From Escherichia coli (lineage in GTDB: Bacteria > Pseudomonadota > Gammaproteobacteria > Enterobacterales > Enterobacteriaceae), in NCBI RefSeq assembly GCF_044324785.1, contig NZ_CP172127.1: a DNA stretch of 64,000 nucleotides. One strand, 5' to 3'. Shown piece by piece: positions 1 to 3,000 of the stretch. Made by a program: the position numbers. Each line of letters begins with the position of its first letter. The stretch's first letter is position 1.

Positions 1-3000
1 GTACTGGCGGCGCTGCGGGCCAAAGCGTTCCAGCAGGCTATGCAGCTCATCACGTATCTCCGAGGCGTAGTCGAACATCCGCGCATGGCCGCGCTGGTAT
101 TGCGAGAGGACGTACAGCAGCAATAGTGGTTTATGCGGCGCACGCTGTTCGCCTTTGCGCCAGATGGTGATGTTCTCGATCGCGTGTTGCAGGGTCGTGC
201 TGGAGGGCATAGCGTTACATTGGCAGCTAAATAAATGCGATGATGCTCGCAAAATCCTTGCCGATCAACCTACCAGATGCGGCGATTCTACGTGGATCGC
301 GATTTAATTATCACTGCCAGTTATTTGTTCGAAAAGACCATAGCTTTCTATTTATACTCAAGCTTCGCGCCATCAGATAGCTATGTCTTATGAAAAAACT
401 ACCGGACCATTTATCCAGGGAATGCATCATCGCCGCCATTCGCGCTTACGATGCAGGCGTTGCGCATCAGTTTAAAAGCGCGCGTCTGTATGAGATCGAG
501 TTTGAGGGGCGTCGGTATCCTTCAAAAGCCATCGTCGGGTTAGCGGCCACGCTTGCGACGGGAACGGAATTTACCCCGGCGGATTTCAGCGGGGGGATTA
601 AATCAAAATGCGTGCGTCTGTTACTGGAGCAAGGATTTACGATCGCGTCGCAGGGCGCTGGCGATGACGAGGTTGCGCTTTTCCCCGATGAGGGGCAGAC
701 GACCATGGAGTACGTGGAAGGGGCGGCGTTGCAGGTGGTGGTCAATCGCTATGAGCGCGACCGTCAGGCTCGTCAGGCGGCGCTTCGCCTGCATGGCTGC
801 CAGTGTCAGGTATGCGGTCTGGATATGGCCAGCCGCTATGGCGATATCGGCCAGGGCTTTATCCATATCCACCATCTCATCCCGCTGGCCGGGATAAAGC
901 AGGACTACCGCCTGAACCCTGAAACCGATCTGATCCCGGTATGTCCCAACTGCCATGCGATGCTGCACCGGCGAGATCCGCCGTTTACCCCCGAAGAGCT
1001 GAAGGCCCGGCTGCGCCCCACAGACTGACATCCGACAGCGCTCGCTTTAATTACATCAAACACACCACAAACCCCACGCTACCTTACCGGTAGCGTGGGC
1101 CCACTCTCTTTTACTTATCCCGCGTCTCGCCAGCCTCCCAGCTGTAGCTGCCATCGGCCGCTAAGCTATCGCCCAGCTCCTGATACTCGAACTGATAAAA
1201 CTCAGCCTGGGTGCCGTACCCGGCGTAGTCTACCGCCGCCAGGCCGACGAACGCCCCGGTAAAGAACCCGCCGTAGCTCTGCAACACATAGTCATCGGAC
1301 AGCACCGCGGCATCCAGCTGGACCGGGATCTCGGTGAACGTCACGCCATCGAAGCTGTATTCATAGCTGTAGGTCTGCTTGCGGACTTTGGTCCGGAACC
1401 AGACGTATTCCACGCCGTCCGGCACCTTGATGGCGTTATCTTTCAGGTACGACGTGTATTTCCCGCGGTTATTTTCGCCGACTTCGATGACCTTGCCGTT
1501 AATTTCATTCCAGGTCAGGAAGACGAAGCTCCAGTGGCGGTCGTTATAGTAATTCGTTAACCCGGCCATCTGCTGGTAGCTGAAGGGCTCGAATTTCACC
1601 TTCACCGCGGCGTCAAAATAGAAGGCCTGCCAGCGGCGGGCAATCAGCGACAGATCATGCGTATTGGCTAACGAGCCCTGGCCGATTAAGGTTAATTTGC
1701 CGTTACCGGTGGTGCCCATTTTGGCCGTAAACGGCACCCGCAGGGTATTCCAGTTCGGGTCGAGGGCTGGCGACGTAAAGTCATCCTGCTGGCTATTATC
1801 GCTGGCGCTTTCGGTGAAGATGGCGTCTTTCGGTCCTTCGACGAAGGTTTTCCCGCCGTGACCGCCTTCAATACGCGGCCAGCCCTCGTCATCCCAGTAC
1901 ACTTTCTGGATCGCGGTTTCCCGGCCGAGGGTTGACCAGCCGCGCGGGTCGTAGATGGATTCCCCCGGGCGATTCCACGGCCGGGCGCAGAGCGAGGCGT
2001 AATACCATTCGCCTTCCGGGGTGGAGACCAGCGCGCCATGGCCCTGTTTCTGGATGTAGCTGTCCGGGGTGTCGACGTTGGTTAAGAACACGTCGCCCGG
2101 CTCGGTTTCAAAGCTGTCGGCCTCGAGGGTTTTCGACCGCGCCACCACCTCCTGGTGGGTAAACACGGTGCCGCCCTGGGCGGCAAACAGGTAGTAGTAG
2201 CCGTTCAGTTTATAGAGGTGCGGCCCCTCGACCAGCGCTACGGCGGTGCCGCGGTAGATGGTGCGCGCGGTTTCCGGCATTAACTTCAGCGTGTTGGTAT
2301 CCAGCTCCGTTAAGGTAATGCCATCGAAGGGGTGATGGTACTCCCGGTGATCCCAGGTTTGCTGGACGATATATTTCCGGCCATCGTCGTCATGGAACAG
2401 CGAGGCGTCAAACCCGACTCCGTTCAGCTTGATCGGGTCGCTCCACGGGCCCCGAATATCCTTCGCGGTGGTCAGGTAGTTGGTCATGTCTTTGAAGGCG
2501 CCTTCGGTGACCTTCACATCGGTATACACCAACCAGAATTGCCCGTCGGCCCAGGAGAGCGCCGGCGCCCAAATGCCGCCGGAGGAGGGGTTGCCCTTCA
2601 TGTCCAGCAGGGTGGTGGTGGAGAGCGGCGAAGGCAGCAGGTTCCAGTTTTTCAGGTCTTTCGACTCATGTAAACGCACGCCCGGAAACCACTCAAACGT
2701 CGAGTTGGCAATATAGTACGTATCCTCGACGCGAATAATACTGGGGTCGGCATTAAAGCCGCGTAATATCGGGTTTTGAATAAGTGACATTTCATTACAC
2801 CTTTTAAAATGGAAAGTGACGAATCGGTCTGATTTATAATTTTTTTAACTACACGCGGATCTCATCCAGCTGACGGTTGATGTCGGTAACATGTTTATCG
2901 GAGATCGGATAAACCTGGATAATCACCATCGAAATAGCGGCCAGCGCGATCGGGATCCACACCGCGGTCATAATGATCCCGTCGATGGCGCTGGCGCTCT

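Follow-up and report, generated by a model that had tools for sequence, protein, structure and literature searches.

This report concerns a pair of divergently transcribed nuclease genes at the left end of a 64,000-nucleotide stretch of an Escherichia coli chromosome (contig NZ_CP172127.1, assembly GCF_044324785.1; hereafter the window). Gene A is a 212-amino-acid (aa) open reading frame (ORF) at 390..1028 on the plus strand, and gene B begins on the opposite strand with MPSSTTLQHAIENITIWRKGEQRAPHKPLLLL... and leaves the window at its start after 70 codons (1..210). A first-pass annotation, made from the sequence alone, had described the former as an ORF with a C-terminal HNH motif and the latter as a divergent ORF running off the window, and both descriptions hold. 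The HNH domain of gene A is recognised by Pfam (PF01844, residues 139-195, E = 3.6e-6) and is the sole Pfam match in that protein.

Nucleotides 1-1100 of the window are 100% identical in 10 of 5426 complete E. coli genomes and 99.9% identical in an eleventh. Over the 25 kb compared (1-25000), identity with strains ES1 and ST38 is 100%, and strain H8 is collinear with the window only up to position 9274. Gene B was completed from the identical genomes H8 and ES1, and the island surroundings were read from the ES1 record. In the genomes 100% identical across this region, gene B is a complete gene of 289 aa (WP_045146950.1), and it does encode an HNH domain of its own, namely HNH_2 (PF13391, residues 181-235, E = 1.7e-9), in the part that lies outside the window. 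In both ES1 and H8, gene A is annotated as “HNH endonuclease” (WP_045146948.1) and gene B as “phosphorothioated DNA-binding restriction endonuclease.” Taken as a whole, the locus is a rather ordinary piece of defence that has been annotated already; in it, a member of one known family stands beside one unstudied member of a known enzyme kind.

Domain architecture of the two genes

Judged by its sequence, gene B belongs, over its full length, to the EcoWI-type family of phosphorothioate-dependent restriction enzymes. The complete protein matches the NCBIfam model NF045808 with 440.8 bits against a cutoff of 180, over profile positions 2-284 of 284, and the 70 codons inside the window match the same model on their own (Table 1). 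Residues 11-155 can be aligned with the sulfur-binding domain (SBD) of ScoMcrA, known from crystal structures, and with the SBD of SprMcrA; with phmmer, this domain was aligned to the ScoMcrA structures 5zmo and 5zmm, residues 104-246 (E = 1.3e-6). The orthologue in Klebsiella aerogenes (86% identical) carries PF26340 (DNA-SBD_ScoMcrA) together with PF13391, and the N-terminus of gene B is a sulfur-binding domain of the PF26340 type. The ratio of nonsynonymous to synonymous substitution rates (dN/dS) of gene B is ~0.05. The sulfur-pocket residues reported for this domain are HR or HK and YP (PMC7461809; PMC6224610). Gene B has H26-K27, whereas the position of Y164-P165 in ScoMcrA is occupied by M74-P75, an MP motif in place of YP.

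EcoWI (Lutz et al. 2020, PMC7461809) has the same SBD and HNH_2 architecture as gene B, is likewise enterobacterial, and is of nearly the same size (33.4 kDa as stated, compared with 33.36 kDa for gene B). As a homodimer, EcoWI cuts both strands, cleaving GpsAAC/GpsTTC DNA at N7/N6 in vitro; in vivo, the enzyme by itself is enough to abolish transformation by dnd+ plasmids, and phosphorothioate-dependent cleavage or restriction has been demonstrated for EcoWI and four homologues (PMC7461809). Neither the 64-kb window nor the adjacent 21 kb has an annotated dnd or ssp gene, which agrees with the published figure that <3.6% of SBD-HNH phosphorothioate-dependent enzymes lie near dnd clusters (PMC7461809); gene B is like the EcoWI-type enzymes in this respect as well as in its full-length match to NF045808. 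The dependence on modified DNA proposed in the first-pass annotation is thus borne out, as a phosphorothioate dependence, for the characterised family to which gene B belongs, of which gene B is an ordinary copy with nothing new about it. The family finds use in excluding phosphorothioate-modified DNA and, as a reagent, in mapping.

Gene A consists of an N-terminal head domain, an acidic linker, and an HNH cassette. In a sequence search of PDB, its residues 7-86 matched residues 6-92 of ScoMcrA (the “head” domain of that enzyme), and its residues 110-194 matched the HNH domains of EcoKMcrA (residues 184-267) and ScoMcrA. Precomputed Pfam assignments for gene A homologues name the N-terminal domain PF26345 (ScoMcrA_N). 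The HNH cassette keeps both CxxC pairs and the HH...N...H residues of EcoKMcrA and ScoMcrA. The family comprises 1174 homologues, and in an alignment of 30 members C139, C142, H161, H162, N187, C188, H189, and H193 of the cassette are invariant, C185 is kept in at least 90% of the sequences, and a cluster in the head (H26, F28, Y34, Y43-P44, K46, F66, G68-G69, and C74) is likewise invariant or almost so. In an AlphaFold model of the family, two domains are predicted with confidence, and the acidic stretch that links them (residues 90-118) is disordered (predicted local distance difference test score, pLDDT, <50). By comparison with the K. aerogenes copy, dN/dS is ~0.08 in the head, 0.07 in the HNH domain, and 0.26 in the linker (linker range, 0.26-0.49; gene A overall, ~0.09), figures that are rough since synonymous sites are close to saturation; these ratios point to purifying selection on both domains. 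Gene A also matches the type IV models of PADLOC (E = 9.8e-10). It is an already annotated, unstudied member of a known enzyme kind.

ScoMcrA of Streptomyces coelicolor (PDB 5ZMM; Liu et al. 2018, PMC6224610) joins head, SBD, SRA, and HNH in one 561-aa chain. Gene A shares with it the N-terminal head and the C-terminal PF01844-type HNH with CxxC pairs; its 212 aa are taken up by head, linker, and HNH and hold neither of the reader domains SBD and SRA, and it is therefore not a ScoMcrA orthologue. Unlike in ScoMcrA, two genes are found here, one with head and HNH and the other with SBD and HNH_2, with no SRA in either and with a different HNH subfamily in gene B. In EcoKMcrA (E. coli K-12 McrA, PDB 6GHC), the HNH domain aligns with that of gene A, but the N-terminal domain, which reads 5-methylcytosine (5mC), is unrelated to the head; the domain of EcoKMcrA that reads 5mC and 5-hydroxymethylcytosine was not found in gene A, and both the head-only model and the head profile miss 6ghc. 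The winged-helix (wH)-HNH type IV enzymes (224-283 aa), which cut near but outside the mark, have the same stand-alone design as gene A, with a small helix-rich DNA-reading domain before the HNH; gene A did not match the DpnI/HhiV4I-type winged-helix sensor of N6-methyladenine found in such enzymes. Architectures in which EVE, head, and HNH follow one another parallel PUA-wH-HNH. A Mrr_N-HNH protein beside the K. aerogenes pair (locus L086, 1260..1919) has the size of gene A and lies at the same locus; its HNH cassette is nearly that of gene A (47% identity over 112 aa), and its N-terminus is Mrr_N. The occurrence of the cassette behind Mrr_N indicates that it has been shuffled among sensor domains, and across bacteria the same cassette also follows many other N-terminal regions. 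The annotated neighbours of the gene pair include no methyltransferase.

The head domain has a predicted topology of helix, two strands, two helices, and strand. Modelled alone, it gives a mixed alpha/beta fold (pLDDT 89, predicted template modelling score 0.82) with a weak resemblance to helix-turn-helix (HTH) or winged-helix domains, and by PDB sequence search, structural model, and profile it matches the ScoMcrA head only. A profile search returned 3578 clusters among 1.84 billion representative proteins, in which the head stands N-terminally or internally in proteins of ~100 to >1500 aa. Among 75 longer examples its partners were HNH (36), HNH_2 (19), EVE (10), McrB-type AAA_5 (6), nSTAND3 (6), NOV_C (4), SAD/SRA (3), and AspBHI_N and Mrr_N (one each), and long head-domain proteins match restriction-enzyme models in PADLOC. 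Judging from these sequences, the partner set has the combinatorial pattern of modification-dependent (type IV) restriction enzymes. Because the partners form such a repertoire, a DNA-targeting role would be the most economical assumption for the head; that it reads a modification does not follow. The head is visible in the 2018 crystal structure of ScoMcrA, where no function was assigned to it and where it takes no part in dimer contacts (PMC6224610). A search of the literature library for ScoMcrA_N, PF26345, or PF26340 returned no papers. No further fusion of head and SBD was seen in 265 proteins searched with an enterobacterial SBD hidden Markov model, whose narrowness makes this negative uninformative.

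The first-pass annotation had taken the two genes for paralogues with alignable N-termini. The alignment proved to be a chance similarity: the two 16-mers quoted share three identities and have a BLOSUM62 score of 0, and every shuffle contained a better pair of 16-mers. The Smith-Waterman score of residues 1-95 of A against residues 1-165 of B falls under the shuffle mean (z = -0.75, 2000 shuffles), BLASTP of A against B gave no N-terminal alignment, and profile-profile comparison of the head family with the B family (hhalign) gave a probability of 0.2%. The N-terminal domains are unrelated, with ScoMcrA_N in A and DNA-SBD_ScoMcrA in B; ScoMcrA itself carries head and SBD adjacent in one chain, the SBD being a 10-helix fold (PMC6224610). 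A and B do share a stretch further on (A 96-146 with B 140-188 by BLASTP, E = 2e-6; A 58-160 with B 103-202 by hhalign, 92%, E = 6.5e-7), and the only true homology between them is distant and limited to the linker plus the first half of the HNH. That A and B arose by recent duplication, with recognition domains that diverged to give dual specificity, is consistent with this shared stretch and with both being sensor-HNH fusions, but the N-terminal domains differ in sequence, profile, and fold and the nuclease domains are assigned to two separate Pfam families, HNH and HNH_2, and we reject the duplication as scarcely credible. Of the paralogous HNH pair, the sensor plus HNH plan of both members therefore stands and the common ancestry of their N-terminal domains does not. 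Dual specificity fares better, as two different sensors side by side would plausibly allow a wider range of modified DNA to be attacked.

Distribution of the genes and the palindrome between them

The divergent pair, with a spacer of 140-180 bp, was found in E. coli, Citrobacter (two species), and K. aerogenes. There are two allele types in E. coli, the second of which is ~65-80% identical and lies beside McrBC. In K. aerogenes (L086, 1-3636), a Mrr_N-HNH gene, an SBD-HNH_2 gene, and the divergent ScoMcrA_N-HNH gene stand in a row that adjoins a type I hsdR gene.

Each gene also occurs without the other. With both genes as query, distant blastn gave matches in 3462 of 5426 E. coli genomes and found both genes in only 336. 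In an even sample of 60 rows of the blastn ranking, ~27 held B alone (by extrapolation, ~1500 genomes) and ~14 held an intact A beside the first ~47 codons of B (~800 genomes). Many of the B-alone loci in E. coli (e.g., L083 in O157:H7 F7349 and L084 in EC1515) have the leuX island on one side and a type II Zorya system (zorA2, zorB2, and zorE) on the other, and a nanM fragment fills the place of gene A there. A without B was found in Pantoea, Pseudescherichia, Escherichia sp. ESNIH1, an Edaphobacter metagenome-assembled genome, and metagenomes. A common E. coli allele of A (P0026, 62% identical; L094-L097) is carried without B by an integrative and conjugative element (ICE), between HTH genes and a TraI_2 relaxase, with ArdC and AbiEi nearby. 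In metagenomic loci L091/L092, the divergent neighbour of a distant (48% identical) head-HNH gene encodes a 368-aa protein (1597-2703) without Pfam or PADLOC match, which may be another partner or sensor-nuclease.

Additional copies, absent from the window, were observed in strain H8. Its leuX island holds a second head-HNH gene beside a 50-codon SBD-HNH stump (L001, 3838-4774), and a third SBD-HNH pseudogene (L001, 29264-29929) has a degenerate pocket, with HN and ML for HK and MP. The second head-HNH gene, located at the nanS junction (3838-4488; cluster P0021, 2133 members), has a zinc-ligand Cys replaced by Tyr (PVYPNCH for PVCPNCH). This copy adjoins a truncated B; the head-HNH allele of PSJ-29, which stands beside an intact SBD-HNH partner, keeps the Cys. 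The extra copies in H8 suggest repeated acquisition and decay of these genes.

The recurrence of the divergent arrangement in E. coli, Citrobacter, and K. aerogenes would be expected if A and B formed one two-component restriction system, such as a heteromer or a split ScoMcrA, in which A gives a second nicking site or a regulatory head. The presence of head, SBD, and an A-type HNH in the single chain of ScoMcrA could be read in the same way, as could the loss of the zinc ligand in the A copy beside a truncated B and its retention beside an intact one. Yet most E. coli copies of B are without A and many copies of A are without B, the EcoWI homodimer alone makes double-strand cuts and restricts in vivo, B has a complete HNH_2 of its own, the conserved intergenic element remains with B where A is absent, and the head contributes nothing to the dimer contacts of ScoMcrA. 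A two-component system is thus unlikely in our judgment. Two autonomous enzymes that travel together are favoured, because each gene often occurs alone and EcoWI needs no partner. The published analysis of EcoWI-family neighbourhoods sought dnd genes only and mentions no neighbouring head-HNH gene (PMC7461809).

The pair is the cargo of a horizontally acquired mobile island. Genes A and B have 58-59% GC, compared with 49% in the core part of the window, and adjoin a foreign xylan/xylose-utilisation cluster within a CP4-like island. In the window strain this island is located at selC (tRNA-Sec at 25010-25104, integrase at 23526-24710); the A-B module is found in the selC island of ES1 and also in the leuX island of H8. 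Carriage on a CP4-like island, together with the P0026 allele that adjoins a TraI_2 relaxase and ArdC on an ICE without B, is what one might see if gene A were an accessory of mobile elements or a selfish HNH nuclease, serving, e.g., the transfer or maintenance of islands and ICEs and not defence. The partners of the head, however, are overwhelmingly restriction-type modules, and the neighbours of gene A include McrBC, type I hsdR, Mrr-like genes, and Zorya. An intron, intein, or terminase context is absent, and defence genes commonly ride ICEs anyway. We consider a function outside defence rather improbable.

The 179-bp intergenic region contains a conserved non-coding block upstream of gene B (226..254), which is invariant among copies whose coding sequences have near-saturated synonymous sites. 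The block precedes every copy of gene B, including those at B-alone loci and the truncated B fragments. Inside it lies an inverted repeat, present in other copies in the perfect form TTGCGA-N6-TCGCAA and in the window with one mismatch; it was located at L001 4584-4601 and 29957-29974, L003/L004 5884-5901, L084/L085 4897-4914, and L086 2846-2863. The palindrome overlaps a candidate gene B promoter placed on conserved alignment columns, and a consensus promoter scan chose instead a less conserved site at 314..285. From its position and conservation in these alignments, the block is probably an operator over the gene B promoter. A promoter-like site upstream of gene A is kept in the K. aerogenes copy and is a doubtful candidate, as it is deleted in the Citrobacter and PSJ-29 copies. 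A structured RNA in the intergenic region was considered and rejected, as no Rfam match was found at E up to 1. Nucleotides 230-385 of the window occur by themselves, at 96.8% identity, in ~30 other E. coli genomes (e.g., SMS-3-5), between IS256 and IS5 remnants and with no annotated gene. This geneless segment is thus a relic of a lost pair.

A perfectly conserved palindrome between A and B, taken with the weak HTH or winged-helix resemblance of the head model, could mean that the head is an HTH-like operator-binding domain through which gene A chiefly regulates gene B. But copies of B that have no A retain the palindrome upstream just as strictly, and the nuclease domain of gene A is intact and under selection, which makes a regulatory role as the chief one most unlikely.

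Proposed roles of the two nucleases

We consider it probable, though well short of certain, that A and B are two separate, divergent, single-chain modification-dependent nucleases (type IV or IIM-like) carried as cargo of an acquired genomic island. For gene B, the N-terminal SBD would dock on phosphorothioate linkages of incoming DNA, and HNH_2 would then cut nearby, a step that has been shown for the EcoWI family and is extended here to this copy. Gene A, which may be called a “mini-McrA,” places a ScoMcrA_N head, by way of a flexible acidic linker, before a zinc-stabilised HNH of the EcoKMcrA/ScoMcrA type, whose catalytic and zinc residues are intact. The head is presumed to serve in DNA targeting or sensing and to hold the nuclease to some feature of foreign DNA; Dam and Dcm methylation, which an E. 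coli host would be expected to carry itself, cannot be that feature. Gene A would act alone and not as a subunit of gene B; the two would be adjacent because defence genes cluster and travel together, and between them they would cover two different DNA marks.

Several points weigh against this explanation. The pocket motif YP is changed to MP in all seven enterobacterial gene B alleles that were aligned. Some cooperation between A and B is conceivable, given that the divergent arrangement recurs and that ScoMcrA joins head and SBD in one chain. The head often accompanies a known reader (EVE, SRA, or SBD), and hence may be an auxiliary DNA clamp and not a sensor. Furthermore, no experiment has been reported on any ScoMcrA_N-HNH protein. 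Nothing shows the dependence on modification that the first-pass annotation had assumed for gene A, whose head is a domain without known function (PMC6224610).

A bolder version, which we put forward only tentatively, is that the head itself reads a DNA modification or feature through its invariant His/Phe/Tyr/Tyr-Pro/Lys/Phe cluster as the binding site, in which case gene A would be the minimal founder of a new type IV specificity class and the pair a compact module with two sensors. Expression might also be set by some regulator through the conserved palindrome upstream of gene B. Gene A is the simplest natural context of ScoMcrA_N, a domain found in thousands of restriction-like proteins, and as a two-domain protein of 212 aa encoded by E. 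coli it offers an easy handle on what the head binds. If the head does read a DNA modification, the type IV toolbox would gain a specificity, and this would help explain the small HNH genes that ride the islands and ICEs of E. coli.

The island and its other genes

The coordinates of the pair, its intergenic elements, and the other features are collected in Table 1. Gene A and the GH43 gene that follows it end convergently, with a GC-rich hairpin between them.

Table 1. Features of the gene pair and of the adjoining island in the window.
Feature	Position	Strand	Basis or remark
Gene B start (first 70 codons; remainder outside the window)	1..210	-	Translation; NF045808 match, E = 1.1e-27
Divergent intergenic region, 179 bp, 42.5% GC (flanking genes ~58% GC)	211..389	.	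Alignment of five diverged pairs
Conserved non-coding block, ~27 nt, 16-43 nt upstream of gene B start	226..254	-	Alignments
Inverted repeat TGCGA-N6-TCGCA inside the conserved block	235..252		
Candidate gene B promoter: -35 TTGATC (268..263), 17-nt spacer, -10 CATCAT (245..240)	240..268	-	Conserved alignment columns; inferred
Promoter-like site upstream of gene A, TCGAAA-18-TATACT	329..358	+	Consensus scan; doubtful
Gene A, 212-aa ScoMcrA_N-HNH nuclease	390..1028	+	ORF, annotation, family of 1174 homologues, dN/dS ~0.09
Gene A head domain, residues 1-88, ScoMcrA_N / PF26345	390..653	+	
Gene A acidic linker, residues 89-118, predicted disordered, isoelectric point 4.05	654..743	+	pLDDT, dN/dS, composition
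Gene A HNH cassette, residues 119-212	744..1025	+	Pfam HNH = residues 139-195, nt 804..974
GC-rich hairpin between gene A and GH43 gene, probable bidirectional terminator	1073..1099	.	
GH43	1111-2790	-	
MFS transporter	2849-4288		
xylA	4715-6034		
Carbohydrate porin	6365-7747		
YbgA	8060-9019		
DUF3833	9016-9567		
Phosphoethanolamine transferase, selC island	about 20209-21711		

In ES1 (selC island) and H8 (leuX island) alike, the sugar-utilisation cluster (1111-9567; 54% GC over 1111-6034) accompanies the pair. The remainder of the selC island (9622-25104) contains an autotransporter-like fragment, ISEc8 of the IS66 family, and a PhoX phosphatase, besides the transferase listed in Table 1. 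Beyond the selC island, the core genes from yicJ to waaO follow.

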